Position numbers and translations under genes: made by a program
Assembly: GCA_045837725.1 (NCBI GenBank)
Contig: JBEWZL010000266.1
Span: 186,001 to 250,000 of the forward strand
Source of the DNA: Vermamoeba vermiformis
Lineage: Eukaryota
Reading direction: 5' to 3'
DNA: 64,000 nt
In this document: positions 17,955 through 56,200 of the stretch, piece by piece
Position numbering within the stretch: position 1 is the first letter of the stretch
How the letters are laid out: each line of letters begins with the position of its first letter
Notes under the pieces: generated by a model
Databases searched by the model: none
Seen by the model: the letters and a program-made list of their open reading frames with translations, nothing else
What the model was told of the DNA's origin: nothing

Positions 17955-19933
17955 ATGCAGAGGTTCGTACGGCAGTTCGTGCGTCGGATGCACAGCACAG
18001 CGGACAAAGCCAGCGCAAGTAAGCGTCAATTGTATTAATTATGATATTGGCGCGGTATATTTTCCATATTATTTATGGCCGTATTATTGATGGTGCAATG
18101 CCATTATTTAACACTGCACTTTGGATCTGACGACAACAATCAGGTCCCACACTGCCCATATTTGATCGTGCCGTGCAACACGCACGTGACAATAGAGTAG
18201 CCGTGCTGTCGCATGGTCGCGAGTTCACTTACGCAGATCTGCTCGCGCACTCGAAACAACTCGCTGCCACGCTGTCCACCAAGTAAGTGCTGCATCCGCT
18301 CGACCACCACTCACGCACTACGCTAGGGACATGCAAGAGGCACGCGTCTCTTTCCTCACACCGCGCACCTACGACTACGTGCGCACGCAGTGGGGTATCT
18401 GGCGCGCAGGAGGTGTCGCAGTGCCGCTGACCTCCGCGCACCCCGCGAGTGAGTGGGAGTACCTGATCCGCGACAGTGAGAGCGAGCTCGTGGTGGTGCA
18501 TCCGTCCTTCGAGGCTCAGATGCGACCTGTAGCGGACAAGCTCGGCGTGCGCATGCTCACCTTGCACGAGGTGCCGCAGAGTGCTGCGAGCTCATTGGTC
18601 AGCGATCACGTGCCCGTGTCTACATCGCGCGCAGCACAGATCGTGTACACGAGTGGCACTACGGGCAGACCCAAGGGCGTGGTGGCCACACACGCGAACA
18701 TGCAAGCGCAAGTGCAGGCCCTGGTGAGTGCGTGGGAGTGGCGCGCAGAGGACTGCACGGTGAATGTGCTGCCCCTGCATCACGTGCACGGCATTGTGAA
18801 TGTGTTGACGTGCTGCTTGTGGTCTGGCGCGCGCTTGGAGATGTTGGACAAGTTTGACAGTCGTCAGCTGTGGCACCTGTTCATGAATCACATGTCACGT
18901 GCGCAACAGGGACTGCCTGCCCTCACGCTGTTCATGGCCGTGCCCACTGTGTACAGTAAGTAGCTGCGCATCTACTGGTGCGAGTGCGCAGTACTGATTC
19001 AGTGAACAGCCAAGTTGATTCATGAATACGATCTCATGTCACCGGAGATGCAGCGCGAGGCCAGTGCGTCATTGAAGCGACTGCGACTGATGGTGAGTGG
19101 TTCAGCTGCCCTGCCTGGTAAGTGGCACATTGCCGCCCGTGACACGTGACTGACAGGTGACACGTGTCAGAGCCCGTGTTCAATCGCTGGGAACAGATCT
19201 CTGGACATCGGCTGTTGGAGCGCTACGGCATGACGGAGATTGGCATGGCACTCAGCAATCCACTGCACGGCCCTCGCATTCCGGTAAGTCACTGTTTGAC
19301 ACCTGTCACGCGCTCACCAGTCACGCAGGGTCGTGTGGGCTATCCGCTGCCAGGAGTGCAGGTGAAGATACAAGCCGAGGACAGCACGCGACCACACACG
19401 GGAGAGCTGTTGGTGCGGGGGCCGCAAGTGTTCCGCGAGTACTTCCGCCGTCCTGAAGCCACGCGCGAGGCCTTTGACAGCGAGGGCTGGTTCTTGACCG
19501 GTGACATTGTGGAGCAGTCCGTCAGCGAGGACCTCACCAAGGGCAGCTACAAGATTGTGGGCCGCAAGAGTGTGGACATCATCAAGTCTGGCGGCTACAA
19601 GCTCAGTGCACTCGACATTGAAGGTACGTGTGGCCCATACTACGCGCTGCAGCACTAACTGTTCCCCCCCGCGCAGATCAGTTGCTCGCACATCCAGACA
19701 TTGCCGAGTGTGCCGTGGTGGGCTTGCCAGATGCTGAGTTCGGACAGCGCGTGGCAGCACTGATAGCACTGCGCAGTGGTGCAAACATGAGTGTGGAGCA
19801 GCTGCATCAGTGGTGCAAGCAGACCATGCCGAGCTACCGCATGCCGCGCACGGTGCAGTTCGTGGATGCGATCCCGCGCAATGCCATGGGCAAGGTGAAC
19901 AAGAAGGAGCTTGTAAAGTTGTTTGTGCAATAA
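17955..19933 (+). CDS. ACSF3: Malonyl-CoA synthetase (ACSF3/MatB family), probable mitochondrial presequence
   Basis: [50 protein letters not shown]. Confidence 0.9.
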
Positions 19934-20069
19934 ACACCTCATATATCTGTAGCTCACCTCGCAGTGTGGTCTAAGGACTTACATTAAGGTGCCAAGCCCT
20001 GGTAGACAGTGACCAGTGCGGCCCTCAGAACATTCAGTGGAGAGTTCTCACGCACAGCAACACAACATC

Positions 20070-21885
20070 ATGAGTACCTCTATTCAACACTACGAGTTCG
20101 ACGAGAATGCTTTCGTGGACTTGCTCACCAAGCTGATCGGTACAACCAAGGTCTAGTTAATCCAAAAACAAGTTGATTGATTTTGCGTAAATATAGGCGA
20201 GTCTAAATACGTGCAAAACAGCCCCCCTGAACTCGTGCCCGAAGGTATGAAATTAAATCAGCCAATAATCATAATTAATGGTAATTATTAGAGGACCGAG
20301 TGGTCGCGCATGTTGAGAAAGGCGAGTAGCAGTGATCTGCATGTTTACACCAATGGCTAATCATAATGCTCGATACAGTATTGGGTCCTTATCTTGCGCC
20401 CAATGGTCCCCTTCAATACAAGCGCAAGGCCTATGTTCCGGGCAGATCTAACGTGATCATCACTTATCCTGGCACCACTCAGCGCACCGTCTCATTCGTG
20501 GGCAGGTCAGTACACACCATGCACCTGTACATTGCTGAGTATAGTCTTGCAGTCACATGGACGTCGTGCCCGCCAATCCCAAAGAGTGGACGCGCGATCC
20601 ATTCACCCTGACGCGCGAAGGAGACAAGCTGTACGGGCGAGGTAACTACACTAGTCACCCCTAGCATATACATCCCGATACTCACTCCGCGCAGGCACCA
20701 CTGACTGTCTCGGACACGTGGCACTGCTCACAGAACTGCTGCGTCAGCTGGCCCAGCACAAGCCCGTGCTGTCCGTGAGTGTGGTGGCAGTGTTCATTGC
20801 AGACGAAGAGGTCGGGGATGACCCTGATGTGGGTGTCGATCACTTGTGTCGCGACGGCGAGCTCGAGTTCATCAAGCACGGTCCGCTCTACTGGCTCGAC
20901 AGCGCGGACATTCATCCCACCGTGGGCTGTGGCTCGATGATCGCGTGGAAGTTGACTGCGCACGGCAAGCGCGGCCACAGGTAAGTGACGCGCAGTGCTG
21001 CCGCGGTGACTGACAGCTGTGCAGTGGTCTGCCGCAGAATGCCATCAATCCGCTGCTGATTGCCACGCACGCACTCGACTACTTGCTCAAACAGTTCCAC
21101 CACGACTTCCCCAAGCACGCGGTGAGTACACAGTGCGGGTGTGACTGACACGTGTCACTGACGCGCGCACAGAAAGAGGCCCAGTACGGCTACGAGTGTC
21201 CCTCCACGATGAAGCCAACCATGTGGTCCCATCCCCCTGGTTCAGTGAATCAGATTCCCTCTGAGTGCGACATCTCGGTCAGTACCGCGACAGAGAGATC
21301 TCTCGCAGCACGGATATTGACACGTGTCATTTGCAGGGTGACATTCGCTTGACACCGTTCTACAAGGTCGAAGAGGTGCAACAGCGCATGCAAGAACACG
21401 TGACGTGGATCAACGAACACATTGATGGCCTGCCCTCTGCTTCGGCCTCATTCCGCAACTCGGTGAGTAGCGCATAATAGGACACATCTGTTGCTGACAC
21501 GTGCTGGACAGTTGCCCGATGGTACACGTGGTCGCGTGGTGTTGCAGTGGGACGGCACGGCATATCGCGGCATTGCATGTGATATGACTAGCGCGGGATT
21601 CAAGGCCCTGAGCGAGGCCACGCGCGAGGTGATTGGTGAGTGCAAGCCTTACGCCGAGACTGGTGCCCTGGTAAGTGACACGTGTCACGCGCGCACTCGT
21701 ACTGACCAATCACGTGACAGCCGTTAGTAGCAGACTTGCAAGAGCGCGGCTTTGACGTGCAAATGATGGGCTTTGGCGTGGGTGCAGTGTACCACGCGAA
21801 TGACGAGTACTGTTCAGTGAATGACATGCGCAAGGGCCATCAAATCCTGTTGAAGATCATCGACAAACTCGCGCAACAGCAGTGA
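20070..21885 (+). CDS. argE: Acetylornithine deacetylase (M20 metallohydrolase); includes a GC-AG intron at 20322-20378
   Basis: [71 protein letters not shown]. Confidence 0.88.
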
Positions 21886-21994: not shown

Positions 21995-22786
21995 TCAGGG
22001 CTTCTTGAAGTTGTACATCATCTTGTGCATGCCCAGCACCTGCACCTCGCTGTCTTCGATCAAGTGCACCACCAGCCAGCACACCACTGCAAAGCCTAAA
22101 TTCGCGCCTGCAAACCACGTGTACGCCAGGGGTTCGCGCAGTCCTACTTGCACCAACCACGCGAGTGTGAGTGTGACACCTGCCACCAGACTGCAAATGA
22201 GCGGTGTACGCGATTTGACACGTGTCATCCAGCCTCCAATGTACACTGCTGACAGCGCGAAACCGAGCGCAGACACACCTAGCGAGCGTGTTAGTGCGAC
22301 AGTATTGATATTGCCATATTTGGTCATTACTTACCTTCCATGGACCAAATTGCCCAAAAAGGAAATTCTTCTGAGAACTGCGCGTGAGGCATCAATTCAA
22401 ATGGAAAATTGAGATGACTCATCATGTAATAGAGTTTGCCCTAAACGAATTGTCAGCAACACGCCCTATTTAAATAATAGCTACGTACAATGCCAAGTAC
22501 AATACCAGCCAAGCCGAACAGATTCTAAAAAACAAAAATTAAATTTCGAAATTAATTAATAATTGACGGAACATACGCGATAAGTCTTATTGGCCTGTGT
22601 GTTCTGATCTTGAAGTCGCTTGATCATTTCTTTTTGTTCTAAATTATTCAAATAAAAGTGTCAGATCCGCTCCGTGCCTACGTAACTACTCATCGCTGCT
22701 TATGATACAGTACCATCCTCATCCAAGTAGTCCGATATGTCGTTAGAGCGCTCTTTGCGGGCAGTGATGCGTTCTCGAGTGCTCAT
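21995..22786 (-). CDS. Conserved multi-pass membrane protein of unknown function
   Basis: Spliced: MSTRERI..DYLDEDEQKEMIKRLQDQN, several hydrophobic helices, C-terminal MYNFKKP*. Confidence 0.65.
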
Positions 22787-23564: not shown

Positions 23565-25566
23565 ATGGAGTTCTCGAACGTGCCTATGGATGGACGCAAG
23601 AAACTGACTGCAAGCACTGTGTCAATGGTGAGTACTGGTAGCACTGTCTCTTGGCCACCATCTAACGGCACGTTGTTGCAGGACGATGATTCAGATGAGT
23701 TCGAGCCGATTCAAGTGCCTGATGAAGATGACAACGCACTGCAAGGCACTCACTCTGCATTCAAACAGCCTTATCGCTCTGCTTGGCGTCCTGATGTGAG
23801 TATTTAAAATTGTTGGCCAACAGCAGTGAAATATTAGAATATTATATCAGGCTGCAACTAATTGATTGCGGACAGTTGTGTGTAATGAGAATAATATTTG
23901 TTAATTTATTGTTAATTTTAAGGAACGAGGACCTCCCGAAATTGATCCTAGCGAAATTGAATATGACGAAGAGAAAGATTTCTTGGGCGAGGGCACCTTT
24001 GGTAAAGTGTTTAGAGGTATGTACGCACAGTCTTATTTAAATCGGTCAACTCCGATAGCTTTGCGCAACGACGTTGAGATGTACTGTTGAACTGACTCAC
24101 CATCCGCAGGTCGATGTCGCGGCAAGAAAGTGGCAGTAAAAGTGCCCGTCAATCAACACCTCACCCCCGAGGAGATGAATGATTTCAGAAAAGAAGTGCA
24201 GATCATGAGCAAGATCTTCCACCCCAATGTCGTGCTGTTCATGGGTGCGTGCACTCAAGCAGGCAACATCAAGATCGTAACAGAGCTGATGGACATGGAC
24301 TTGGAGCACTTCCTCAAGACCGAAGAGGGACGCACCTTGTCGCTGTTTCAGCGCATGAAGATGGCCAAAGACGCCGCGCTGGGCATGAACTGGCTGCACG
24401 GCATCACCAAGATCATTCACCGCGACTTCAAGACCGCCAACTTGCTCGTCTCGTTCGATGAGAATCTGCGCACCAAGGTGATTGACTTTGGCTTCAGTGA
24501 AATCAAGCCCTCGATGACTGGCCAGTACCTCAAAGATCAGTTCGGACCGCGCGGCACTGCACTGTGGATGGCCCCTGAAGTGATGCAGGGCAAGGAGTTC
24601 GACGAGAGCATTGACGTGTACGCATTCGGCATTGTGTTGTGGGAGATTGTGATGTTGTTGGAGCCCTTCGCCCACCACGATGACTGGGACGTGTTCTTCG
24701 ATGCCGTGGTGCTCAAGGGCGAGCGACCGCCGCTCGATGCCGCGACCTTCAACAAGATGAACAAAGTGCCCAGCAGCACCACCACCACCACCACCAAGAA
24801 GGAGAGCAAGATTGTGCACGTCAACACCATGTCCAATCCGCTCATCACTGAACTGCCGCACAGTCTCGCGAGTCTGATCCGCGATTGTTGGAGTCACGTG
24901 CCACGTCAGCGCCCCTCGTTCAATCAGATCGTCTATCGCATCGATGAAGTGCTCGTCGACACGGCGATTGAAGACCCTCAGGGCCGTGCATTCTGGCGCG
25001 AGATGTTCTTGTTGCCGCGCAAAGAGCTGCAAGAGCGCGTCAACTGGGACGAGTTTGTGCAAGCACTGATGCGCAAGACACGACTGCAAGTCAAGCAGCG
25101 CTTCGATCACTTGTATCACTTGCTGGTGGACGCCAACAACGAGGTCACCATCCACAAGTTCAATCACATGGTCAGCTGGTTCGGTCACTTCTTCGTGGCG
25201 GAGCATGCCAATCACGTGCTCGATGAGATACGCGACATTGTAGAGCGGCCCTGGTTCCACGGCGAGATTGACATCACGCACGCCGAGAGTGTGCTGCAAG
25301 ACAAGGCTCCGGGCACCTATCTCGTGCGACTCTCCACCACCTATGCGCAGTACCCATTCACGCTCTCGCTCTCGACGAGACCGCAGCACAAGCGCATCCA
25401 GAAGGAGGTGGTGCAGGGTCAGATCGTGTTCTCGATCGTGTTGCCCGACAAGAAGACTGTGCGCCGTGCCCCCTCGCTGATTGAACTGCTCGATCTGGTG
25501 GCCAAGCCCTTCAATCTGCTCACTCCGTGTCCCAAGGACGAGATGATCACCAATCCCTACGAGTGA
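23565..25566 (+). CDS. TKL-family protein kinase with C-terminal SH2 domain (Shk-type)
   Basis: LGEGTFGKV, VAVK, HRDFKTANLL, DFG, GTALWMAPE; SH2 WFHGEI..YLVRLS..PFTLS. Confidence 0.92.
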
Positions 25567-25740: not shown

Positions 25741-27342
25741 ATGGAGTCATTCAACAACTTGTTCGAGTCTCCGCTAGTGAGTGTCGATGGATTTGCCAAG
25801 ACTACGAAAGCTATTCTCGACGAAGTGCGCGCTGAACTGGATGCAGCTCCGGCACTCGACCTCGCGGATGTCAATATAGAGTGCGTGTTTGGGGTTAATA
25901 CTATTTTTAAAATTCATTCCATAATTAATAACGAATATTTTCGCTAGTTGTGACGACTTGCGTTATAGATCGCCAAAAGAGCAGATCCAAAGTGCGATCG
26001 ACGCGGCAATGGTAATTTATATTAATTGAGTGCAGCAGAAACTATCATTGACTACTTATACAGGCCGATATTGCTGACAATCCCCCTTTTACTTCACGAG
26101 GTAAGATCCACATGCTATTCTGAGAGTAGTCATTATCCTATGCTTCTCTTTCATATATACGCAGCTCCTATTAACACCGTGCACGCCCCAGACAAAGTTG
26201 ATGTCAAGACAGTGCTCGAGCGCTATCACATACCCAGCTACGAGGAGTTGTCGCGCAAGAAGAAAGAAGCGCCGCTGCACTGCATCAAGTAAGCGCCGTA
26301 ATAATACTATATTATACATATATATATAGTGCACATATTCTTGTACATTGATGCCGGTACTCGCAGACACGCACGATGGGCGGCAGAACAAACGCGGATC
26401 TTGCAGCGCAAAAAAGAAGTGAACTACTTGACTGAAAATGTCAACAGTCATCTCGATGTAAGTGTCACGTGCATTCACTGAACTGTCGATAGCTGACACG
26501 TGTCATTCACAGCCCGAGGCCCCCACGGAGCCGATCGACAGCGAGGACGTGGTGCTGTCCATCGCGCTGTATCACCCGAGCAAGAACACCAAGACGCAAG
26601 AGTACCGCGTGCTGGGCCAACAACCCCTCACGGCACTGCGCGACAAGCTGTACTGTCTCAGCGATCACATGCTCGATGGACCCAAGATCAAGAGCGGCTA
26701 CTTCTTCGTCGAGCACACCTTCTACAACGACATGCGCGATCAGAACACGGATTATTCCAAGTACGTACTTGACAGTTAATACTTGGATGATGATGACACC
26801 TGTCAAACACTCACTCTGACACGTGTCACAGGACTGTGATCGACTGGGCCGAGGAGATGAAGCGAGTGACGCGAGTGATGCGCGAGAGACACGAGGCAGT
26901 GGTGATGAAACGACCGCGCGGACTGACCAAACAACACGCGATTGGCACGTACATCATCACACCGGCCTCGACACTGCACGCTGCGGTGATGGAGAACACG
27001 CGCTTCGTGGACCTGAATCTGCGCATTGGCACGCCGTACCTGTACTGTCACCAGGGCAACTGTCTGCACCACATGATCGTGCACGAAGTGCGGCGCATTG
27101 ATCGATCGATGGACGTGCTCAACCGACTCGCCTATCCGCTGCACGTGTTCCAGTCCAAGATTCGACGCAAGAAGTGTCGCATCTGTGACACGTGTCCCGC
27201 CAAGTACGTGACGTATGGCGACAAGATGAGTCCCGAGAACCCCTGCTTCTACTGCGACAACTGCTACCGCTCCCTGCACTACGACAGCGAGGGCCGCTTG
27301 TTGTACAGCGATTACAAAGTGTTTCCGTATTATCACGAATAG
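25741..27342 (+). CDS. SNAPC3: snRNA-activating protein complex subunit 3 (SNAP50)
   Basis: QPLTALRDKLYC, SGYFFVEHTFYNDMR, LRIGTPYLYCHQGNCLH, CRIC..PENPCFYCDNCYRSLHY. Confidence 0.92.
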
Positions 27343-30127: not shown

Positions 30128-31916
30128 TCAGCTGTGCGGCACTGAGTCGCTGTCACTGCTGTCGCTGCTGTCACTGCTGTCACTCGGTGCCATCGTCATT
30201 GTGCTCAGCGCGGCATTGCTTAGCGGGGTTGTGGCAGGGTTGGTCGCCCCAGCGGCGGTATTGCTACCAGTGGTATTGCTGTTGCTTGGAGTGGCTTCGA
30301 GCGGTAGTGTCGTGGCGTGACTGAGTGTCGTGCTGTGGTGGTCTTCAGTGGTGGGCGTGGCAGTGGTGTTGACACTAGTGCTGGTGGCACTGTTGGGGGT
30401 GTTGGGGCTGATCACGGCGTTTGGTGAGCTATTTTTAGCATCAACTGCAGCACTGGGTGCTTTGATTTTGATGCGAATGGATGGTCGAGTGATAGGTGTG
30501 ACAGGTGTCACTGGGGTGACATTTGAATTATTCCGCTGCGTGTCAAGGGTCGTTGAGTCGTGTGGAATGATGTTTGACGCTTCTTGTGACGCGTAACTGA
30601 CAGGTGGAGGGGCAACTGACTGCAACACCTCGTTTGACACTGGATTTGACAGGTCAGTTGACACGTGTCGCTTGTTCTGTCCCTCGTCCTCCTCGTCAGC
30701 TCGTTTTCTCTTGCGCGCAGTGACATCACGCCGCGCATTGCGGGCAGCAATGAGTTCAGGGTGCTGCTGATAATAACTCGCGAGGTAGTGTTCGCGATCA
30801 GTGCGGTACTGCATCATATTCGCACTCAACATGTGCTTCAACTTGCGGTACTGTTGCTTGTACAGCTGCACCAGATTTGACAGGTGTGTCTTGCGGCGTG
30901 TCACGAATTCTTTTTCAGTCATGGTGTTGACAGTACTGCAAATGACACGTGTCAATCAGCGACTCGCGCGGATATCAAGACGTACCTCAAATAGTCATCC
31001 ACGAGCTCAAACTGTCGTTGTGTCACATCGTGCGAGCCCTCAGTCAGGGCTGTCACTGGCTCAGGGTCTGCGCGCTCAAAATAGATCACGCCATTCATGA
31101 AATCCGTGTCGGAGTGCTGCGCGGTGATTGCTGCCACCTCTTCGTCGTCGTCTTCACTCGCCACGGACGACGAGTCACTCTCCTCTTTGTGCTCACTCGC
31201 AGCATGCACACCGTGACTCGTGTTGGTGTTGTTAGCTGTGTTAGTGTTGGCAGCACGAGGGGCAGTGGTGTCAGTGTGCGTGCTGCTCACTCCGACCTCG
31301 CGCAACACTTGCTGCAAGCGACGACGTGAAGCCAAGTGTTCAGGACTGGGCTCGTGTCGTTCAAGTGGCACGTCATCGAGTGTCATCACTGTGCTGACTG
31401 GCACGTGACTCACTGGACTGAACTGCTGTGAGGGCTTTTTGCCTTTTTTGGCACTGACAGATCCGGGAGTTGTGAGGCCGAGTGCTTGACGATGAAACAC
31501 GCAGTATCTATACGACAATATAGATCACTATTAATCGCGTGTACAATAAATAGGACGCGTGGAAAAGTACCTCGGATCAGGATCAGCGAGTGCGACAGGA
31601 TTGGTGCACTGTTTGTTGGACTTGGGATTGACGTTGTCGCATTGCTTGAAGGGTGCAGCAGGGTCTTCGAGGATGTGTTTGGCGCAGAAGCCATAGCCCT
31701 CCATGCGTCTGCGAACTGTTAGTGTACTGGCTTCGGATCTGCTTTCAACACCAGCTGCAGCAGTGATACGTACTTCTGATGGCAGATCTTAAGGCTGTAG
31801 CTGCATAATAACTTTCCGTCAGCATTGCGATGAATATTCGTCCCCTCTCGGGGGTGACGGATCGGAGGCTCGCCGTTACTGTCCTCCAGCGAGAGATCGA
31901 TTAGCATGGTACTCAT
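30128..31916 (-). CDS. zf-C3Hc3H protein, KANSL2/INO80D-like chromatin complex subunit
   Basis: LCSYSLKIC..GYGFCAKHILEDPAAPFKQC..CTNPV..RYCVFH; later RRKTHLSNLVQLYKQQY helix. Confidence 0.75.
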
Positions 31917-42833: not shown

Positions 42834-44374
42834 TCAATCAGTCTCCATGTCCAGCAGCTCTTGTTGTGCGCGCACAGCAGCTGACTCGTCCTCTTTTCTC
42901 TTGTGCAGCGAGGCCAGTTCATCGATCACACTCGTCAACAGATTTTTGTTCTTTTTCTGCTCTTCTTCGAGTTGTTTTTGTTTCTTCTTCCACTCAAGTG
43001 TTTTGAAAGTGTCTGCAATGTCTTGTTTGATCTTCTCTTCTATCATCGCCCACTCTTTCAATTCTTTCACAGTCTTCACAATCAGGGTCTGTTTCGCGCG
43101 TCGTACGTCATCAATCTCACGCGCGGTGTATCCGCCATCTTGTTCGAGACGAGCAATCAAGTCGTTCTCGTACATTTGAACTGCTTTGCAGGCTGATTTG
43201 GGCTTGAGTGGTGCACCTTGAATGACACGTGGATAACATTGCACGAGTTTAGCGAGGTGTTTTAGTCCGTCTTCACCTTCGCCAAGCAGCACTTTGTTGT
43301 AATTGGCTGCTACTTTCGCGACATTAGCAGTTTCAACATCACCTTGGGCTATTAGGTCTGACACTGCTTTGCACAACTGTTCTGGTGTCAGAGGTTGCGG
43401 ACCTTTAGGCTTAGCTGGGCGGGGAAGAGCAGCGCCAGGAGCACCTGGAGGGGGTGGTGGAGGGGGAGGAGCGACATTGGTGTTGGAAGTGTCAGTGACC
43501 TCTTCGATGACAGATGGTGCGACGGGTGGTGGTAAGAAGTGATTGATCGGTGAGTGTCGCGGTGGTGAGTGCTGAATGCTGTGAGCGAGCACTTGATCAA
43601 CAGTCAGCGAGGCCAGCACTGATTTGTATTGCTCCAACAAGGCACGCATTTGCTGCAGATCTCCTTGCACTTGCTGCAATTCACCGAGCTTGCTGCGCAT
43701 GAGTTCGAGTTCAGCAGCGAGTTGAATGGTGTGCGCGACAGTTGGCGGACTGGTGCTGAGCGCAGTGTGGAGCGCATTGTCCTTGGCTTGTTGGGCGTGG
43801 AAGAACGATGCGACCCACGACTGGAATCTGCGCACTCGACCCGTGTTGGGCGTGTCACATGCCATGGATTGTTCGATATTGTCTTTGACACGTGTCATTT
43901 CAAGACTCGGAACATCGTCTGCCTGTTGTTTCATCGCATTCTCGAGGTGCGAGGGGTCTGTCAAACTGTTGCTGACACTCAGCACGGTGAAGTCATCAAC
44001 TTTCAGTGAACCAGACATGACCATCTCCGCTGCACCCGACTTGCCTTTTATGGGCATTGCTTCAGTCGCGGTGTGCGGTGCTGGACTGTCCACTACTATT
44101 TCAGGCAAGTTCTCCGTGTTGTAAATAGATTCGTCCATGCACGATTGATCACGTGTGCTGTACTCGTCCATATCGGGTATTCTATCGAGATCATCGTCCT
44201 GTCACGTGATAATTAATATAAATAAAATTGATAAATCTCAAATCGCCGTACTGAGTCATTATCGTTGTTGTGGTCCCGTTGCAGAATTGAGTCAGAAACG
44301 CTGTTCGTCGAGTGATAAGGCTCGAATAGTGTATCGTCATCGAGTGGTGGCTGTACAGATAGGTTCATATTCAT
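42834..44374 (-). CDS. Hypothetical protein with coiled coils and a polyproline tract
   Basis: 445-aa ORF plus an upstream exon joined in phase 0; PPPPPPPP; family not recognised. Confidence 0.7.
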
Positions 44375-44472
44375 ATTTACATGCTCTCTATTGTTATTTG
44401 AGTTGAGATCTGCTTCGTTTAAACAGTGCTGTTGATTATTTGCTAATTCGGCGCTCTTGCGCAGACTTTCTT

Positions 44473-45013
44473 TTAATTTTTCAGTTTCTTCTTTAATATG
44501 AGCCTCTAATAATATTCTGCCCCAATAAATTTATTAATATAAAAGAGCAAATAAGCGTGTTGTGATCCAACTAAGACTTACTCGGCACATTCAGCATTGC
44601 TAGTTGAAAGTGATAAATGTAGAGGTAATTGACCACTCTTGTCTGGAACATTAACACTCGCGCCTATTATATTAAATTAATTGCGAATTTTACGCAAAAA
44701 CAGAAGCAGTTTTCGAGATCGGTCTTATCTGCCTTCAAATTACTTGCCATTATCGAGCAATTCTTTAATAGCTTGCTTATCCTCTAATACTGTTGCCAAA
44801 TGGAGCAAGGTAGCGCCATTATCTGCGACCTAGAATTACAAGAATGAGAAAGAATAATCTCAATTTATTTTACAGAGCTAATTAGAACTTAAAAATTGAT
44901 ACAAGAATTAAATAAAATTATAATCATTATAATATTACCTCGGAGTTAATGTCTGCACCACTAGAGTGCATCCGTTGAATGATCGAACGAGAAACAGAAC
45001 CAACATTACCCAT
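44473..45013 (-). CDS. Small (about 95 aa) ankyrin-repeat protein with myristoylation-type N-terminus; 4 exons, one GC-AG intron (44664-44747)
   Basis: MGNVGS..GADINSE|VADNGATLLHLA..ELLDNG|ASVNVPDKSGQLPLHLS..AE|ILLEAH; absent from the ORF track. Confidence 0.8.
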
Positions 45014-45338
45014 TCTGATTATAATACATGCGATCGAAATACTACAGTGTTATTATTAATATTAAACAGTCTCTTGTGTTTGCGTGTTATGTACAGGTGG
45101 TGGAAATGTCAAAAAAGAAAAAATTTGACTGTAATCGCACTGGATAGGGACAACAGACTCTCATTTGATCAGTATACACTGTATGGATATATTGCCCTAT
45201 CAAGTTGTTAGATTGCCGTTACGTACTCTGCTTGTTGGGGTGTCACTCGGTCAGTGCGAATTTAATGTCAGTTTTTACAACCGAGTCACACACGACGTGA
45301 ACGCCTAGCCTAGTAAATATATGCTGTAGTAATTGCAT

Positions 45339-47339
45339 ATGACTTCTAGGCGCAGATCGAGAGAGGCGGATCCAGCCGAGAATGGTGAGGTAGTTGAGGT
45401 CGAGATCAAGGAAGATGGAGATGCAGACATACCCAGTGACGATGAAAACTCCGGTAGGTGTTTCTACATGAATAAATATATCGGGGAAATCATTGGGGCC
45501 ACCAAATATTTCGAATGAAGGTTAATGCAAACGAAGGGCCATATTTTCAGATCGAAAATTTAATTCAACAGGGTCCTTTTGTGGCCCTGCTACTACCTAC
45601 GAAAATCATAGGAATTATAAAGATATTTTTCGAAGTATAGGCGCTATAATATGTAATTCCGTAGTTTTTAATCGATCGGTTTATTAAATTTCTTGCAGGG
45701 CAATTGAGCCAAGACGGCTTCGTAATGCAAAATGGCACATCAAAAGGCATCAGAACAGGCATTGTATACGACGAGCGCGTGTTGAAGCACATCAATGCCA
45801 AGCCAGGCAGTCCCGAGACCGCTGAACGGGTGCAAGTCTGTTTTGAAAAGCTGAAACGATCGAAACTGCTCGACAAATGCGAGTTAATAGGTACTAATAG
45901 GGAGAATATGACCTAGCAGTTAATGGCTAATCTTTGTCGCAGCGGGCGAAGAAGCCAGCGATGAGGTCTTGACGCTGGCCCACACTGCAGAATACGTGCG
46001 CAAAGTGAGCAACAAGTGCAACAAGTTGAGTGGCCGCGAGACAGTGGAGATTGATCAAGACGTCGTGCTCTCGCGTGAATCTGATCGCGCTGCCCGTGTG
46101 GCTGTTGGAGGACTCGTGAAATTGACCGACAAAGTGTTGAACGGCGAGCTCGACAATGGCTTTGCAATTGTTCGGCCACCGGGACATCACGCTGAGGCTG
46201 GAGAGGCCATGTAAGTCCAAACCAAATATGACATTAGGAGGTCTAATTAATGCTGCACCTAGGGGCTATTGCATTTACAACAACATTGCAGTGGCAGCAC
46301 GGTACGCTATTTCAAAGGGCATCAAGCGCGTGTTGATTGTGGATTGGGACTTGCATCACGGGAATGGCATTCAAAACATATTTCTGAACGATGACAAAGT
46401 GATGTACTTCTCAGTGCATTATCACGGGCGAGGGGACTATTACCCGGGTGAATCGGGTGCGCTGCATGTGGTGGGCAATGATGATGGTTACGGTACTATA
46501 ATGATCGCTGCAATGTGATATGAATCTACCACTAACCTGCCCATTAGGCTACAACGTCAATGTGCCGTTCAATCGGCAGAAGATGGACACACAAGACTAC
46601 GCAGCTGTCTTTCACAAATTGTTGCTGCCAATGGCAATCGAATACGGACCTGAACTCATCTTTGTAGCCGCTGGATTTGACGCAACACGCGGTGACAAGA
46701 TGGGCATCATGCGCGTCTCCACCACTGGCTACGCCTATTTCACACAGCTCTTGAAGTTGATCAACAAGAAGATCATCATGTCACTGGAGGGCGGTTACAA
46801 TGCAAAGTTGACAGCGATGTGTGTGGAGAAGTGCGTCAGTGTCTTGTTGGGCCAGCAAGTCTCAGCCACCACACCGGGAGTGCCTAGCGCACAGTGCTTG
46901 GAGACGATCAAGCAAGTAGCCATGCAGTGTGGTTAACAATCTTTTGCTTACATATAATGCAGGAATGTCGCATTGACGCACATTAAGACGGGTTGGAAAT
47001 GCTTCGGAGACTACGCAGGCATATCTGACAATCCTAACACGTGAGTGATAAATGCTGCACACATAATTCATGTTGCTAAACTAATGCAGACAAAAACGAG
47101 GCTGGGAGCCAATGCCAGTCGATGCGGATGGCAACGAGTATTTGGTGGATAAAATCCTCGATGACAAAGTCGTGAAGGGCAGAAAGAAGTACTATGTCTC
47201 GTGGTTTGGATTTCCGTCAGACGAGAACGAGTGGGTGGACGAGAAAGATATTTCAGAGGGGCTCGTTAAAGACTACGAGGCCAATAAGAAGGACAAGACC
47301 AAAGAGCCACCTAAAAAGAAACAAAAAACACGCCGCTGA
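45339..47339 (+). CDS. Class II-like histone deacetylase with C-terminal chromodomain
   Basis: RPPGHHA, GYCIYNN, DWDLHHGNG, AGFDA, LEGGY; chromodomain EYLVDKIL..YYVSWFGFPSDENEWV. Confidence 0.85.
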
Positions 47340-47395
47340 CGTCAATTCAGCACCCATGTACAGTATATAGTATTTAACATTAGCCACGCACCTGT

Positions 47396-48986
47396 TTATT
47401 TGATCTTGAGCAAGTTGATCAGCTGTCGTTCAGGCAGTGAAATGAGCACTGACCGACTCGTGGTGAGTCCGTTCTTCTTCATTGCAGTGAGCATTTTGAT
47501 GTATTCACCGTGACCTTGAATAGCCTCGAAGAACTTTCTGTTGTCTTCAATGTCTTTGACAGTGACGAAGACGTCGTCAATTTTCTTCACGAGTTCCATA
47601 AATTTAGTGTTGACCTGTAGTCAATATACCAATCAATCAATATTCGTAGCTGTGCCACAAATAATGTACTTACTGAATCATATAGTGGCCTCCATTGCGG
47701 GAAATAGGCAAAGAACTCTTCGCTCTCATTGGTGATCACTAACTTGAGCATGCGCCGTTCATTCAAACCTTCCTTGTCTTTGACTGTCAACAGTGCCATT
47801 TGAACGTAGTTCGGTGACTTGATTTTGAGCCGTTTGAAATGGATGTCACACGCTACAAATCCTTCGGCGTTTGCTGGATTCAAGTCAGCTGCGGCCTCGA
47901 CAATTTCATCGAGAGATTTGTACTCTGCGACACAATTAGACATCTATTAGCACATTATTGATATGCCTCATACCTCTGAACGGCACTGACTTCCACTTGT
48001 ATTTGTTGGCATACAGCGCGTGGTCTTCTTCGGCCAATGTTTTCAAATTCCTCACGCCATGCAAAAAGATGTCATCTTGATCGTATTTTACAATAATCTA
48101 TATATAATACGTTAATACTGTGAGTCGCAAGTATGTCTAATGCCTACTCTGCCATCGCGTGACAAAAATTCGAACATGAAGCACTTGTCTTGGTCCTCTT
48201 CGCTCGGCAGTGTATAATTGAGTGACTTCCACACGGCCCAAAATATCGTGTTGAATGTCGGTATGTCGTCATAATTGAGCCACTCTCGTTTGTCGTTTGT
48301 GGCATCGGCGTTGTCTTCGCCATCCAAAGTTAATTCCTCGAGCTGATCTGTAACATCATCTTCACCATTCTCATTGTTATTATTAGCTGCTGCGTCATCA
48401 TTGTTATTGTTGATTGATGTTTCGCTGTCAGTTGGCACGGGTACATTCATCAATTCAGCGAAGCGTTTCTTCGTTATTCTAATTTTGCCAGATGCGTCCG
48501 GCTTGCCGCTGGTTGCAATATGCCATTCCCCTTTACATAAAATTTAATAAATTCACCGATAAACCTACTAAAGTACCTTTGTAATAGTACAGTGTCATTA
48601 AGCTGCCATCTAGCTTGTCGGTTACGCGAACAGGTTGCTTGAAATTGAGCTTTGCGGCATGGGATTCGCCTGTGATAATCGGGGTATTATTATGAGGTGC
48701 TCAATTAATATTTGAATTTCTATAATTATTCTGCGTAATTTAGCAGATCCATACCAACATTAAAGAACTTGTCATAGGGATAAGAGACTATCCGCCAGTC
48801 ATCCGATTCGTCCAATATAATACCACGACAGTTTTGCACAACCTTGCTACTGAAAGGGGAGTTGATTTGATCGTATTTGAATAATATAAGTTGCGGATGC
48901 TTCTTGTGCCGGCACGTAGCAACGCTGAGTTTAGTCTTAACAGCTGCAAGACCTTCTCTTTTCAAAAAACCTACGAGATGAGTCAT
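47396..48986 (-). CDS. T4 Rnl1-like ATP-dependent RNA ligase
   Basis: NCRGIIL, YPYDKFFN, motif I DKLDGS, FMFE, LHGVRN, EGFV, RLKIKS; spliced. Confidence 0.85.
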
Positions 48987-49123
48987 GTTGTTGACAGTTG
49001 AAATAAATAAATCGAAATACTCGTTCTGCGACTTTTTTTTGTATTTAAATCTCGTACTTATCTCCCCAATCTCAATTAATACAATTTATAACAAAGCAGA
49101 TTAAAATACAAAATTGCTTTTCC

Positions 49124-50216
49124 TTAAGCACTAGGGTTGGGAGCAGTGATTCCAGCTGTAATGTCATCGAAGGTCGTGAGCTTGACGATCAGCGAGACGA
49201 TGAACACGTAGCTCTGCAGTGAGATGTTAGGCATTGTTAGGTATATAGGGGCTCATATAGAGCACTTACGATGATAAGCCACACGAAAACACCGACAATG
49301 CAAGCAGCAATCGTGATGGGATAGATGCTGTACTGATTGTTCGCGGCCACAAATCCTGCGTCATTTGCCGCGAGCAGTCCACTCTCCACCACTGCATTGA
49401 ACGCGTCTAAACACCACGTGACTAGGATGCAGATTGAAAAGATGGCGACCAGGATAATGAACTGATAGTACCAGTTAAGAAATAATAAAAAGAACTATAA
49501 TCAAGTTGATTAAGACTAATATGAAAGGATACGCCTAAGAACATTTTCTTCTTGCGGAAGTGCACGGTGATAATGCACGCGACCAGATCAATGACCAACA
49601 GAAGACCTGTCAAATGTTACTTTAATTGCCGAGTAATTAATTAACGATCGTGATTACCTCCAATAACTCGAATAGCATCCGCAGCAAGAGCAGTGCCTGT
49701 ATAACAAATGGTAACGTCAATATCGATACAGCAGTTTTGATTCAGTAGGTCCTACCTTGCGTTCGCCCTAAGAATCCGCGCCAAGCTGTGGCACCCAAAA
49801 TCAGCCAGCCTAAAACGAGGGCCTAACATGACGAGTTATTAATTACTGAATTTTGCTCGCAATATCGTTAAATTGGCCGGTTTGTGTCAGAAAATCTTTT
49901 TATAAGTTCGGGATTCGGAAACTGAAATTCGATTTCGAAATTAAAATTGTCTTAATTACTTGTTAAGACAATTTATCCATCGATTCTTTACTTCCAACAA
50001 AACATTCTGAATTCTACAAACCGACGATCCGAAATCAATACAAAAGCCTTGTAATTTCATGTGAACATTTCAATAATTGATATTAGTACTTACTCCTGCA
50101 ATACAATAGAGAATAAATAAAGATTTCTTCGTGCGAACGAAGGGTCCGCCAAATCTCGCAACTCGTTGTACAGGGCCGGAGTCGGCTGCAACATTCGGTG
50201 ACGAGTTCACTTCCAT
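49124..50216 (-). CDS. Four-TM membrane protein of unknown function
   Basis: Six small exons join into an open frame with four hydrophobic segments; ends ITAPNPSA*. Confidence 0.7.
49462..49532 (-). other. U12-type GT-AG intron
   Basis: Donor GTATCCTTT, branch TTTCTTAAC 14 nt before the intron end; frame MFLG|FIIL maintained. Confidence 0.85.
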
Positions 50217-50400
50217 GGTATTATGGTGCTGGTGCAGAGGTCATAAATATTTAATTAAAACATCAATCAACGTTCACTCTTTGTTTTTGCTATTTTAAGA
50301 AATCACGTGTTTGTGGTAGATCAGCGCGCAGTAATGAGCTAATAATTACAATGTTTATATGACGAATATATACTACGGTCGAGAAGACACTGGGCCACAT

Positions 50401-51479
50401 CTACTCAGAGGTCTTTTCAATGTCCATCGGTGTGGGCGGATCCACGTGTTCATTAACACTCGAGCCCTCTTCTTTCTTGTCCTCAATATTGCCACCCTTT
50501 ACATCAACGTTAGACCAGCACATGAGTCACACATACAGCGCGACATACCTCGTCCTCGCTGTCATCTTTCTTCTCCGCTGCTGGTTCATCGAACTGTCTG
50601 TCGCTCTGTTTGATCGCACTGATCGCTTTGTGTTGTTGCGCCACTTGGGTGTCGTAGTCACTCGCTGACAATGTCTCTTGTGTCGTCGATACTGACAGTA
50701 ACTGCGTGACAGGTTAGCAATTATAGGTCAATCAAGCAATGCGCGGAACACAGCGCTCGTAGCAGTGTTGCCAAGTGATCACTGCACGTACCTTGTCGTA
50801 GGCAAATATGTATTTTTTGGTTGAAGAATACAACGTGGGTCGCACTATTAGCTCACACATGCGTTGTACTGTAAAGGGCACGCTAAAAAAAAATAATTAG
50901 CATAAATAGCTATAATTGGCAAAATACTAGTATTTTCAACCGTACCCTGAAAAACCATTAAGCGCATCTAACAATTTCTTTTTCTGCTGGTCAAAATCTG
51001 ATAGAGGACTCTTTGCTTGCCATTCATCCAAAATCTAATGGATATATTATTAATATGATCACTAAATTGCAACCATTGTGGAACAAAAATATCTTTTGTA
51101 GGATCTGTCAGCCGCGTACCTGTTCCAATCTATATCCAATCAACTGTTTTAAAAATTCCCAAGGGTAGCTAAAAAACCGTATTAATAAATATGCGCTCAT
51201 AGAAATGAAAATCAGTTTTTTAAATTAATTTCGTGGATTAACTAGCATTTAATTAATAATTTGCGTCGACGTACCAAGTCAATCCAGTGGCTGCTATATC
51301 ATTAATGATTCGATGCAAATTATCGTTTAACGTTTTGGTTGCTTGTTTAGTGAAATCTAGAATAAGAAACAGATTTAATGCGGGTGGTTAACGCTGGACC
51401 TATCGTTCAACAACTGACCTTCCAATTCATTTTCAAAGTCCTTTGAATATTTAATTTCGCGGGCCTTGTCTGTTTCCAT
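50401..51479 (-). CDS. PPP4R2: Protein phosphatase 4 regulatory subunit 2
   Basis: IAATG..YPWEFLK, VPFTVQRMCELIVRP..KKYIFAYDKLL; acidic tail; absent from the ORF track. Confidence 0.85.
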
Positions 51480-51609
51480 GTTGCGCTGTCTGGTAAAATT
51501 TGGTTGCATGAGAAATTCAAACCAAATTTATTGCAAAGGTGAACACAACACATTAGACCATTAAATTTTGGATAGACTTTCATATAAAGCTTAAATTCAA
51601 ACAACAGCA

Positions 51610-52858
51610 ATGAACAAACTCAAAGTCAGAGATGTGGTCATCACAAGACACGATATGGTTGTTGTCGGCGAAAATGAATCGATTGAAAATGTGCTTAAGG
51701 TTAGTTGCCATAGACATATTAAGATTGAAGTATAAGCAACTGGGTATTAAAATTTTTCAAGTTTCGTTCATGAAAATATTTTGATTACTTTTATCTTACT
51801 ATTTTACTTACAACCCGATATTTTTTTAGACACTCGAACGTCATAAAATACAGTCAGTACCAATCAAAACTTACGATGGCACAATTGTTGGATTTTTTGA
51901 TGTTTTAGATCTGCTCTGCTATTTGGTGTCTGGCCACGAAAGCAAAGACAATATTGGCACATTATATCAAAAGAGCGCAACACTGCCATTCCAGCGAGTG
52001 TTAGATATGATTGGTAAGCATCGTAACGTGTCGATATGAGTTTTCGACTAAAACTCGATAGATTTATCAAAGCGAAATCCTTATGCCCCTGTGCATCTGG
52101 ACGATCCTATTGGCGCAGCTCTACTGTTATTCGCACAGCCAGTCCATCGAGTGCCAGTGCACGATGAGAAAGAGAATCTCGTTGGTATTTTGTCGCAGTC
52201 AGACCTCTTAAAGGTAATAGCAGGTGATTACAAACGAGTCGTTATTAACGCGGTGTATATTAGTACTTTGTACATCACCCCGAGCTCTTGAGTGAGATCA
52301 ATGACTTGAGCGTGTTAGACCTGCGCTTGGGCACGAGTGAAGCCAAGCTTGACAAGCTGATCAGCATCAACAAGAAGTTGCCCGCGCTTGAAGCATTCAA
52401 ATTGGTACGCGTAACAGCACGACATAGGAGTACGGTGATACTAACACCTATCAGATGAACACGCACTTCTTGTCCGCAGTCGCAGTGGTGGATGATGAAG
52501 GACATTTGTTCTCATCAATCAGTGCCACTGATTTGCGGAATATCTCCTTCAATCTCGCCGATGAATTCTCACTCAAAGCACTCGCTTTGCCCGCGCAAGA
52601 GTTTATCGACTTGTCTCGCAAGGCCCGTGGTCAGGTACGTGCTATTACAACTATGACTAACTTTGCTGACACGTGTCACAGCACGCTGATTTCCTCGTGT
52701 GGTGTCAGCCAGGCTCGTCACTGCGCGATGTAATTCAGCACATGTACAACAACCACGTGCACCGCGTCTATTTGGTCGACAACTACATCAACTTCTTTGG
52801 CGTCGTGTCAGTCACTGATATTGCTCGTCTGTTGTTGGAACAAATGAGTGGACTGTAA
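51610..52858 (+). CDS. Four-CBS-domain protein (AMPK-gamma/Sds23-like)
   Basis: IQSVPI..VGFFDVLDLL, VHRVPV..GILSQSDL, SAVAVVD..SISATDL, HVHRVYLV..GVVSVTDI. Confidence 0.85.
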
Positions 52859-53264
52859 TGCATGTGTAGCAGTGAAAGTAAATAGTGTTAGAATTAGATT
52901 TCATTCCCGAAATCTTAACGATGCACGTGATTCGAAATTTCACGTAAAAATATTTCCAACCGCTGCCCTTTAATATTAACAACTTTTATATTGTTGATCA
53001 CGACAAGTAGGCGGCGGTGTATATTTATTAACGCCTACTCGCGATTCTGTCATTAAGTTCGTAGATCAATTGTAAGCCAACGGAAAACATAATTTAATTT
53101 CACAAAATGAGCATAACAATATAAGCACAATTATTGAATATTGTCGAGGCACGAGGAATTACAAATATCAGCAACTGATTTATTGAATTGAATTCGAGTA
53201 TCTTTTTTTTAGTTTTGATTAAATCGGTCAATACTGACTAACTGAAATATTTTAGCAATTAGCA

Positions 53265-56200
53265 ATGTCAGAAACACCAGTATTGGGCAGTTTAAATAAG
53301 ACGCTCGCCGAGAAAAAATTGGCCAAGTACGATCCCGCGCTAGAAAAGAAAGTGCGTGCCTCACTTGCAATATTAGTGCCAGAGGTAAATTTAGAATTTA
53401 TGACGGCAACAATCATTATCTAACACGATTAAACTCAAGCACAAAGAAACGTTGGAGAATGAAAAAATGAGCTTGCAAGATGCGCTGAAAGACGGAATCG
53501 TATTGTGCAAGTATGTACTCTTTGCCATGTTAGAATATGGCTAATTGCGTAATTAGATTGATGAATAAGATTGCACCGAACAAGATCTCACGGATCAACA
53601 CCATGCAAGTTGCGTTCAAGCAAATGGTATTGGTTATATTATTATTGTGATTCGTACATGGGACTAACATCTTACGCAGGAAAATATTGCAAACTATTTG
53701 AAAGCATGCACACAAATTGGCTTGCAAGAGATTGAATGCTTTGAAACGAATGATTTGTTCGAAGGCCGCGATTTGATGGCTGTACGTAGCCTCAGTTATC
53801 ATAAACATGCCTCAAATAACTATATTTATATACTAGGTGCTGAACAACTTGAACACATTCTTGACGCTGCACGAGAAGTACGGCGATCAATTGCTCGATC
53901 AACTCAAACAACGACCGTAAGTCACGTGACACTTGCCAAATGCATGTCGGCCGTTAATTGACACCTGTCATTAGCACTGCAGCAGAGGCACGCAACGAGC
54001 CAAAGTCCCCTGCAACACCAGCACCGCGCATCAACACCGTCAAGTCCATCACACCCACTGCCAGTCCAACCGATCAAAAGGGTCCCTCGACACTGGGCAA
54101 GAAACCAGCGCTGTGGGGCCAGTCCTCGGAGACTATGTGTAAGTCAATCAATAGTTAGTTTGGCACTGTGCAGCACTGACTCGGAATTAACAGCCTCGCC
54201 TACTTCGGCCTCCGTAAGCAGTTTGGAACACGATATTCAAACCAAAGAAGAGTTCAAATACATCCCTGAACTCGAGCGAACGGCGCGACAGTGGATTGAA
54301 GCAGTGACTGGCATCAAACAACCAGAGCTGACCTTCCCTCAGTATCTGAAGTCTGGCATTGTGCTGTGCAAGTTAATTAACACCGTCAAGCCCAACGCTG
54401 TCACCAAAGTCAACGAGGGTACTGTGGCGTACAAACAGATGGAGAACATTGAACATTACCTGAAAGCGTGCAGTGAACTCGGTCTGCATCAACAAGATCT
54501 CTTCAACACGTCAGATTTGTTCAATGAAAAGAACGTCAATCTTGTCATTAACAGCATTCACGTGTTCGCGCATTTCATCGAGAAGTTGCCTAATTACAAC
54601 GGACCCAGAATTGAGAACCCGCAAACAGCGAGAAATCTGTTCTCAGCCTCATTGGTCGAAGGCTCGGCAAGTGACTTCTTGAGTGAAGATCCGAATGCTG
54701 TGCCCGAGCCCTTGACGCCTGAGCAACAAGAACTATTGGACTGGGCCAATGCGCTGCTACGTCGATTTGACACTGCGTTCAAACTGAAGAACTTGACTAC
54801 AGACGTGCGTGACGGTGTTAAGCTCATCAAGCTGCTGGAAGTTGTGACTAAGGGATCACAATTGGGCTCGTACACAAAACAACCCAAGTTACTTTGGCAC
54901 TGCATGCAGAACGCCACGTTAATTCTCCGCTTCTTGGCACAACAGACCTTTGAAAAGGTGCAATGCCGTGCTACGGACATTGTGATGGGAAATCTCGATG
55001 CCGTCGTGCGCTTGCTAACCTTCATCAGAAACAAATTCGATTTGGACTACATGTTCAAGAAACTGATTGCTGAGGCATATTTGTCGCCCGAGGACGTGTT
55101 GTTCGAAGAGACAGAAGAGGTCATTCAAGTGCCTGACGAGGACATTTCACATCTCAAAGACGAACAGCCAGTGATTGTTTTGACACCTGCCTCACCTGTC
55201 AAAACCACAACTACCAGTGTCACCACAGTGCGTAAGACATCACAGCCACAAACTCCGGTCGCCATTGCCAAGCCCGCAGAGACAGCAGTTACCGCCACGC
55301 AGACACAAACTCCAACTAAGGAGCCAACCACTCCCAAAACGGTGCAAACACCACAAACCCCTCAGACACCTAGCACACCGCAGACCCCACAAACACCGAG
55401 CACACCTACCACTACCAAGCCCATTGATATTCCCTCTCCACGCGACTCACCATCCACTCTTGAGCCTTCTTCACCCAAAACAGGCTCACCACTGAGTACC
55501 TCACGAGGTTAGTACCGCCATTAATGTTAATGTATGCTTGCTAACTCTGATCGTCAGACTCGACAAAAAGAGACAAAAAGAGCAAAGAAAAACAAAAGAA
55601 ATCCAAAGACAAGAAGAGCAAGGAGAAGAAGTCACGCTCCAAAGACAAAAAATCATCACTGGCCTCGTCAAGTGAGGGTCCAGCGAGCCTGTCATCAGAG
55701 CAGTTGTCCGACGAGTCCAAGTCATCACGCAAACACGAGTCCCCGCGCAAAGAAAGACCCCTCAATGTCGTTGTGACCTCTGCCCCCGAGCCCACACCAG
55801 CTCATCAAGAGCCTGTCACAACCACCACTGCAGCCACTACTAAAGCTACCGTGGAGACAGCAGCAGGCACTCAGCCCACCACTCCTTCACAGCCTCAAGC
55901 TGCCGCTCAAACCGCCGCAGTGTCTCAACCTCAAGCCGCGGGACCTCTCGCAGCTAGTGATAGCGCTGTCACTCAACCACACCACGTTGAGCGTGATCGC
56001 ACCGTCAGCATCTCAGCTGACAACACGAACAATCCAGTGGTGCGCCGATTGGTGCGCAGTCACACTCGCATTCAGACCTCAGAGCCCGAGAGTAAGTTCT
56101 ACCATTGCAATTGTTACTGCATTAATGCTTGTCCTAGAATTGGCCCGTGTCGCGAAGGCTCAAGGAAAGATGCGCCAACACGTGGCTAATGAACTGCTGC

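Follow-up and report, generated by a model that had tools for sequence, protein, structure and literature searches.

The stretch of DNA analysed here (the window; 64,000 nucleotides, positions 186,001 to 250,000 of contig JBEWZL010000266.1) carries genes that, by similarity, encode ATG2, an ENTH protein, a kinase with a C-terminal SH2 domain, an LRR-filamin protein, a CH-domain protein, malonyl-CoA synthetase, acetylornithine deacetylase, SNAPC3, a RabGAP-TBC protein, a LETM1-like protein and a histone deacetylase. The best named relatives are Physarum and the dictyostelids. Introns are short (median 54 nt, with 5–95% between 42 and 99 nt in our crude models), begin with GTAAGT, GTGAGT or GTACGT, and usually have an ACTGAC or ACTAAC branch site some 10–20 nt before the 3′ YAG. 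Running through these genes is an exact 12-bp palindrome, TGACACGTGTCA, which is the subject of this report. An earlier note on this DNA had drawn attention to the palindrome, but overlooked that most copies occupy the branch-site or 3′ splice-site position and are not scattered through introns.

The window contains 18 exact copies of TGACACGTGTCA, and none of 100 dinucleotide-preserving shuffles reaches that number (mean 0.03, maximum 1). Sites within two mismatches of the word number 46, against 4.57 expected (SD 2.11, maximum 12). Counted on both strands, the 36 occurrences compare with Markov expectations of 0.007 at order 0, 0.07 at order 3 and 1.2 at order 5. The expectations at orders 6 and 7 (6.0 and 15.9) lie nearer to the observed count because the models were trained on the window itself, motif copies included, and at these orders mostly reproduce the word from those copies. 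The excess holds at all orders that are not dominated by these copies (0–5), and with it stands the enrichment claimed in the earlier note.

The spacing of the two half-sites is strict. TGACA-N2-TGTCA occurs 28 times, against 0–2 occurrences at each other spacing from 0 to 12 bp. The central dinucleotide is CG in 18 of these sites, CC in 4, GG in 4 and GC in 2, and never includes A or T; the 18 perfect copies lie where the earlier note had placed them, and its count of ten centre variants is right. The range that it gave, 19158–53970, encloses every perfect copy and misses one GC variant at 4625. Its "many one-mismatch copies" amount to 13, eight of which differ at the centre only and are the CC and GG variants already counted. 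The commonest variant is a G-to-C transversion. CpG is not depleted in the window (observed/expected 1.01), and TG/CA decay variants of the word number none in the window and one in the metagenome loci described below, which weakens the earlier suggestion of a methylation-biased mutational process. Copies concentrate in the middle of the window, 16000–44000, which is richer in GC (about 0.46–0.53). The flanks (1–16000 and 44000–64000) have AT-rich introns and almost no copies, and in individual genes the introns on the 5′ side tend to be rich in AT and to lack the motif.

By context, 14 of the perfect copies are intronic, three are exonic and one (22216) lies past a gene's stop. After correction of the crude gene map, 27 of the 28 perfect copies and centre variants fall in introns or exons, those called intergenic by the map having turned out to lie in genes that it had missed. 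In these crude models none of the 28 was placed in intergenic DNA of the window, 22216 lying past a stop.

Introns and exons that carry the word

The earlier count of 14 intronic perfect copies is borne out: their host introns measure 43–75 nt, seven being validated by homology and the other seven supported by splice signals and reading-frame continuity. In the malonyl-CoA-synthetase-like gene, the copy at 19158–19169 (+) ends intron 19118–19170, its final A and the following G forming the 3′ AG, and homologous proteins abut across this intron (P0011 residues 244/245 across 19117–19169). The same intron holds a partial copy, TGACACGTGACT (19140–19151, +). The centre variant TGACACCTGTCA at 19297–19308 (+) lies in intron 19284–19328, which homologous proteins skip (a 45-nt gap in the P0011 alignment). 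Homologous proteins likewise validate three introns of the acetylornithine-deacetylase-like gene. Here a perfect copy at 21146–21157 (+) is followed by CTGAC in intron 21122–21172 (a 51-nt gap in the P0131 alignment), and another at 21318–21329 (+) stands 7 nt before the 3′ end of intron 21278–21336 (P0149 residues 284/286 abut). The third, at 21676–21687 (+), starts at base 6 of intron 21671–21720 and has a separate ACTGAC downstream (P0149 residues 381/382 abut). A partial copy, TGACACGTGCTG (21495–21506, +), takes the branch position of intron 21463–21511. Pfam profiles matched none of the middle exons of this gene, which the homologous proteins resolved, and of six pieces from very short exons (21–43 aa) they matched only one.

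In the SNAPC3-like gene, the perfect copy at 26494–26505 (+) lies 7 nt before the 3′ end of intron 26458–26512, which is supported by the model only. Intron 26761–26831 contains both a TGACACCTGTCA variant (26794–26805, +) and a perfect copy 3 nt before its end (26817–26828, +). Pfam profile coordinates continue across this intron, with SNAPC3 positions 1–66 and 63–199 on the flanking exons, as they do across introns 42143–42200 and 42296–42370 of the RabGAP-TBC gene. The latter gene yields one continuous protein when five introns are removed. A one-mismatch copy, TGACACGTGACA (41565–41576, +), supplies with its CA and the next G the 3′ CAG of intron 41506–41577; a perfect copy (41674–41685, +) stands 7 nt before the 3′ end of intron 41642–41692, where the TBC reading frame is continuous; and a two-mismatch copy, TGACACGTTTGA (41840–41851, +), stands 3 nt before the 3′ end of intron 41801–41854. 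This last is a probable GC-AG intron (GCAAGT...CAG), required for the continuous frame. Intron 42143–42200 has a perfect copy from base 11 (42153–42164, +) and a partial TGACACGTGCTG at its branch position (42184–42195, +), between exons matching TBC profile positions 42–130 and 134–163. The perfect copy at 42351–42362 (+) lies 8 nt before the 3′ end of intron 42296–42370, between positions 134–163 and 171–213. TGACACGT stands at the branch position of all five TBC introns; in three of them it belongs to a perfect 12-mer, and in the other two the right side is degenerate.

Copies on the minus strand are placed in the same way. The perfect copy at 30943–30954 (−) is 7 nt before the 3′ end of intron 30985–30936, with 179 and 268 open codons on either side, and that at 34326–34337 (−) is 3 nt before the 3′ end of intron 34372–34323. 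A partial copy (sense TGACACGTGTTC, 33846–33857, −) occupies the branch position of intron 33896–33844, and a TGACACCTGTCA variant on the sense strand (34145–34156, −) starts at base 11 of the intron beginning at 34166, with CTGAC downstream. The frame of the LETM1-like gene is open only after removal of four consecutive motif-bearing introns: 37410–37352 (perfect copy at 37359–37370, −, 7 nt before the 3′ end), 37591–37542 (sense TGACACCTGTCA at 37546–37557, −, 4 nt before), 37742–37700 (perfect copy at 37703–37714, −, 3 nt before) and 38038–37903 (TGACAGCTGTCA at 37909–37920, −, 6 nt before). On the plus strand again, a perfect copy at 52667–52678 lies 3 nt before the 3′ end of intron 52635–52681, a model-only intron, and a TGACACCTGTCA variant at 53959–53970 lies 12 nt before the 3′ end of intron 53917–53982 of the CH-domain gene.

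Most intronic perfect copies thus end 1–8 nt before the 3′ YAG. We compared 25 motif-bearing introns, taken from the window and from related loci. In 17 of them the motif comes to within 10 nt of the 3′ end, and in these A3, the A of the first TGAC, is 10–17 nt from the intron end; in motif-less introns the branch-site consensus CTRAY has a median distance of 14 nt (quartiles 11–19). No other CTRAY is present in 11 of the 17, and the remaining six have one at 17–35 nt from the end. Where the motif lies further upstream, CTGAC follows downstream in four of eight introns, and some copies adjoin the 5′ splice site (intron bases 6–13) with an ordinary branch site downstream. Of 15 oriented copies, 13 have a T or C immediately before TGAC, and whole 3′ ends recur in the window (TGACACGTGTCATTTGCAG three times, TGACACGTGTCACAG four times). 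In most host introns the branch point is very probably supplied by the TGAC half of the motif.

Several side observations concern the same introns. Many introns end in ...TGACAG, with a branch-like TGAC 2–3 nt from the 3′ AG (21711–21720, 34125–34134, 41565–41577 and others). The word TGACAGGT is over-represented (19 against 3.3 expected, both strands), and CACGTG often adjoins the 5′ splice site as GTAAGTCACGTG. In three two-copy introns (42143–42200 and one each in metagenome loci L013, at 737 and 768, and L020, at 1714 and 1745) the copies are 19 nt apart, or 31 bp from centre to centre; other two-copy introns have 6, 11 or 23–25 nt between copies. Minor-spliceosome (U12-type, [AG]TATCCTT) introns were considered and rejected, since the motif introns start with GTAAGT, GTGAGT or GTACGT, and one with GCAAGT.

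The exonic perfect copies lie in the coiled-coil tail of the LRR-filamin protein (33441–33452, −, within H-V-T-R-V-M, and 33731–33742, −, within D-V-T-R-V-N) and in a 455-codon open frame, 44201–42837 (43886–43897, −, within E-M-T-R-V-K). All three are read as xTG ACA CGT GTC A and encode V/M-T-R-V, the recurrent peptide recognised in the earlier note. A fourth copy that it had taken as coding, at 22216–22227, could not be upheld as such: it lies past the stop (21882) of the deacetylase-like gene, in DNA with open frames in either direction, and would suit an intron of 66 nt with GTGAGT..CAG borders. In the 34,158 nt of modelled coding sequence, three perfect copies compare with a mean of 0.10 after synonymous shuffling, and 0 of 300 shuffles reach three; the enrichment therefore also withstands a codon-aware null. 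Shuffling the order of codons yields 0 copies of TGACACGTGTCA.

Exonic centre variants encode V-T-P-V and V-T-G-V. The former is encoded by sense TGACACCTGTCA at 30499–30510 (−) and, in an open frame that may alternatively be an in-frame 54-nt intron, at 35350–35361 (−); the latter by sense TGACAGGTGTCA at 35206–35217 (−), in a filamin repeat (match residues 349–428). A TGACAGCTGTCA variant (4625–4636, +) lies inside the long open frame 3904–5922. The tripeptide T-P-V occurs 9 times in the modelled proteins against 2.8 expected, part of this excess being due to V-T-P-V repeats encoded by TGACACCTGTCA (30131–30934, −).

Introns and exons differ in strand preference. Intronic TGACACCTGTCA is on the sense strand in five of five cases, intronic sites that match only the 9-mer TGACACGTG are so in five of five, and asymmetric intronic variants always retain TGACAC on the sense strand. 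Exonic copies of the 9-mer alone split 4 to 3 between the strands, with no orientation bias. We infer that the intronic bias reflects a splicing constraint on the left half (the branch site and avoidance of an early AG) laid over a strand-symmetric word.

Related loci and known systems

An exact 19-mer scan of metagenome contigs identified 25 loci, none of which overlaps the window; the same scan of viral contigs gave 0 matches. Five groups of loci represent the same sequence from different assemblies, and L009 and L018, which lie in GC-rich DNA without intron context, look like chance hits. Seventeen distinct intron-like loci remain. In nearly all of them a short GT..AG intron ends with the motif, and eight further perfect copies, not selected by the scan, occur in 66,582 nt of these loci. 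The motif is therefore not confined to this contig, and its presence at splice-relevant positions in independent assemblies rules out an adapter or assembly artefact, the two eventualities against which the earlier note had guarded.

The genes in L017 and L020 are orthologues or close paralogues; their exons are about 78% identical, and their introns otherwise cannot be aligned. In one of their introns the 5′-proximal TGACACCTGTCA, which was not used in the scan, is identical at 12 of 12 positions, and the 3′ copy is perfect in one locus and 9/12 in the other, with the left nine bases retained. The scanned copy is identical in both, and other introns lack the motif in both. Though it comes from a single pair, taken from a motif-selected scan, this pattern argues for long-term maintenance of the motif at particular introns.

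The word resembles several known signals. CACGTG is the E-box/G-box of bHLH and bZIP factors, and CACCTG and CAGCTG are other classical E-boxes. The core of TGACACGTGTCA is CACGTG, and its centre variants are the remaining classical E-box cores; here, however, the TGA..TCA flanks are fixed, the sites lie in the gene body rather than in promoters, and exact repetition is far greater. The inverted TGACA half-sites, 2 bp apart in a 12-bp dyad, have the geometry of the TALE double site that the earlier note had invoked, and the likeness is real: in PMC6158717, TGIF1 homeodomain monomers bind the two halves of TGACAGCTGTCA, one to each half-site, and a MEIS1 structure serves as the model. In contrast to that site, the copies here are exact, number many per 10 kb, and lie in introns and exons rather than in promoters.

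An extended branch-site motif, ACTAACACACAG, is found in Giardia and Trichomonas. The extended branch-site and 3′ splice-site words of intron-poor eukaryotes (compare Irimia and Roy 2008, PMC2483917) share with the present case a long, near-invariant word and a branch point fixed at a short distance from the 3′ AG. In contrast to them, the word here marks a subset of introns in an intron-rich genome that also uses ordinary ACTGAC, is palindromic, and occurs at intron 5′ ends and in exons as well. The Arabidopsis signal of intron-mediated enhancement, TTNGATYTG (bioRxiv 10.1101/269852), is a DNA word that is enriched in introns without being restricted to them and acts within transcribed sequence; it is promoter-proximal and non-palindromic, whereas the copies here occupy the middle and 3′ parts of genes, by a rough estimate.

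The closest parallel in abundance lies outside the eukaryotes, and the earlier note had drawn it. HIP1, GCGATCGC, is the highly iterated palindrome of cyanobacteria. Both are exact palindromes that exceed expectation by orders of magnitude and occur in coding as well as non-coding DNA, with function unsettled. The present word differs in that it belongs to a eukaryote, is 12 bp rather than 8 bp long, is concentrated at one functional intron position and has no copy placed in intergenic DNA of the window in the crude models. Nor is it frame-independent in the manner claimed for both, since all exonic perfect copies share a single frame. TGACACGTGTCA fails a defining feature of the TALE site, of the intron-poor words, of HIP1 and of the enhancement signal.

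How the word may be read

TGACACGTGTCA is a real cis-element of transcribed gene interiors in an amoebozoan-like protist and its relatives, and appears to be under selective maintenance. The reading that we favour, to which we assign a probability of roughly 0.4, is that the selected element would be read as double-stranded DNA by a dimeric protein, with the TGAC of the branch site as a ready half-site. Recognition as duplex is suggested by the perfect dyad, the strict 2-bp spacing, the restriction of the centre to C and G, and the exonic partial copies without orientation bias. A dimeric DNA-binding protein would be the most economical reader because TALE pairs bind both halves of TGACAGCTGTCA and the three centres seen are the classical E-box cores. 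Under this proposal the left half of the intronic word would be the branch point, and a putative homodimeric, sequence-specific protein would bind the word as duplex. Copies may have accumulated at branch sites, where four of the twelve bases (TGAC) would already be present and splicing would still work. The bound protein might act in gene-body regulation, in chromatin phasing, or in coupling elongation to splicing.

A number of points weigh against recognition as DNA. It is deduced from symmetry alone, the gene models of the window are crude, and the orientation bias is drawn from few copies. Alternative introns could contain the three exonic copies, 33441 having a YAG 13 nt downstream. The copies are not in promoters, where transcription-factor sites normally lie, and perfect copies (18) outnumber all one-mismatch copies (13), while such sites are normally degenerate. 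The canonical TALE centre, GC, is found in only 2 of 28 sites, against 18 of 28 with CG. At the branch position the left 8–9 bases are better kept than the last three, which points to a constraint at the RNA level. Finally, the conservation between L017 and L020 concerns one pair, taken from a motif-selected scan.

The alternative that survives best, which we regard as possible though somewhat improbable, is that the word is a splicing element read as RNA. TGACACGTG would be an extended branch site that pairs with U2 small nuclear RNA (snRNA) beyond the usual GUAGUA contact; the full palindrome would serve RNA-RNA pairing between pre-mRNA copies or between intron ends, and the exonic copies would be by-products or alternative-acceptor sites. 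The canonical U2 sequence, which we take to be CAAGUGUAGUA, would presumably pair with yUGA(bulged A)CACGUG with one G·A mismatch; an Rfam search of the window gave 0 matches, hence no snRNA gene was found in it. The motif indeed stands at the branch position, often without another branch site, all five TBC introns retain TGACACGT with the last bases varying, and asymmetric intronic variants hold the left half on the sense strand (5/5 and 5/5). However, a single-stranded signal needs no dyad, and U2 pairing leaves unexplained the TCA that directly follows TGACACGTG at 18 of 30 sites, so that the dyad symmetry is not a by-product of the branch site. Pairing between copies would suit the several introns that have two of them, or CACGTG adjoining the 5′ splice site, yet genes with a single copy are common and the commonest variant, being a transversion, breaks pairing where a wobble would not. 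Moreover, motif introns are no more structured than shuffles (mean z −0.01, n = 18, two with imprecise borders), so a hairpin or zipper is not the general explanation of the motif. The exonic copies, which exceed the synonymous null and as partial copies have no strand bias (4 to 3), also speak against the RNA reading.

Less probable still, and in our judgement unlikely, is a functionless, sequence-specific drive, in which a repair, gene-conversion or template-switch bias in transcribed DNA perfects near-matches. Over-represented words, cyanobacterial HIP1 among them, have been proposed to arise by drive of this type. It would accommodate the surplus of perfect over one-mismatch copies, the synonymous cost borne by the exonic copies, the limitation to gene bodies, and the density of copies in the GC-richer middle of the window. 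We know of no eukaryotic repair activity with 12-bp specificity, however, which counts against it, as do the CpG ratio of 1.01 and the lack of deamination variants in the window. The same introns carry or lack the motif in L017 and L020, despite the divergence of these loci to 78% identity; this pattern suits site-specific selection better than a drive acting on the whole genome, under which copies should continue to accrue.

Protists are known to have introners, and the word is common to many introns, some with a copy at both ends, but the idea that an introner or miniature inverted-repeat element made these introns and left its termini as the palindrome is highly improbable, given that the word lies inside introns and not at their borders, that target duplications were not seen, that exonic copies exist, and that motif-removed introns align at a mean local score of 5.5 against 4.8 for other introns (maximum 12). 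With no likeness beyond the motif, these introns are not copies of a longer mobile element, as the earlier note had concluded from the unrelated flanks. Since motif introns are common to the two diverged loci, any insertion would be old, yet the word is still exact.

Returning to the word as a duplex element, a wider claim can be made, which we consider doubtful as a whole: that eukaryotes, too, have something like the signature words of bacteria. The exact 12-bp dyad would mark the interiors of transcription units at the level of DNA and would be read by a dimeric protein, for instance in chromatin phasing or in coupling elongation to splicing; in gene-dense regions it would have taken the place of the ordinary branch site in as many as a third of introns, and it would cost synonymous choice in coding sequence. 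In intron-rich eukaryotes the branch site is as a rule a short, loosely defined sequence, and most known over-represented exact palindromes are bacterial. In this DNA a single 12-base word is both a stand-in for the branch site and a symmetric word that is retained in exons too and across species. A search of open-access papers and preprints, supplements aside, found no description of the motif, the exact 12-mer occurring only in unrelated Ebola-virus papers, and a gene-body signal of this sort seems to have been described for no eukaryote. If read as DNA, the word would be a gene-body signal of an undescribed kind, constrained to remain compatible with splicing; a reading as RNA would make it an extended branch site of an unusual sort, relevant to how U2 recognition can evolve. 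TGACACGTGTCA also offers a simple metagenome marker of this amoeboid lineage and a clean system in which to separate DNA-level from RNA-level constraints on introns.

Other features of the window may be recorded. Another palindromic word, CAGATCTG, has 11 copies where 3.4 are expected (at 4858, 9291, 11162, 18234, 27584, 33014, 36482, 36759, 39613, 42700 and 60008), four of these copies being GCAGATCTGC, for which about one is expected. Some stand at gene ends, such as 42700, which closely follows the stop of the TBC gene, and 36759, where the LRR-filamin model starts; others are exonic. A second CACGTG-centred palindrome, GTCACGTGAC, occurs four times (28004, 34478, 34730 and 53921) against about one expected. 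The open frame at 24091–25566 (+) encodes a protein kinase domain with an SH2 domain C-terminal to it, the order of the Dictyostelium Shk kinases, and the protein is nearest to a cluster with mostly Discosea members.

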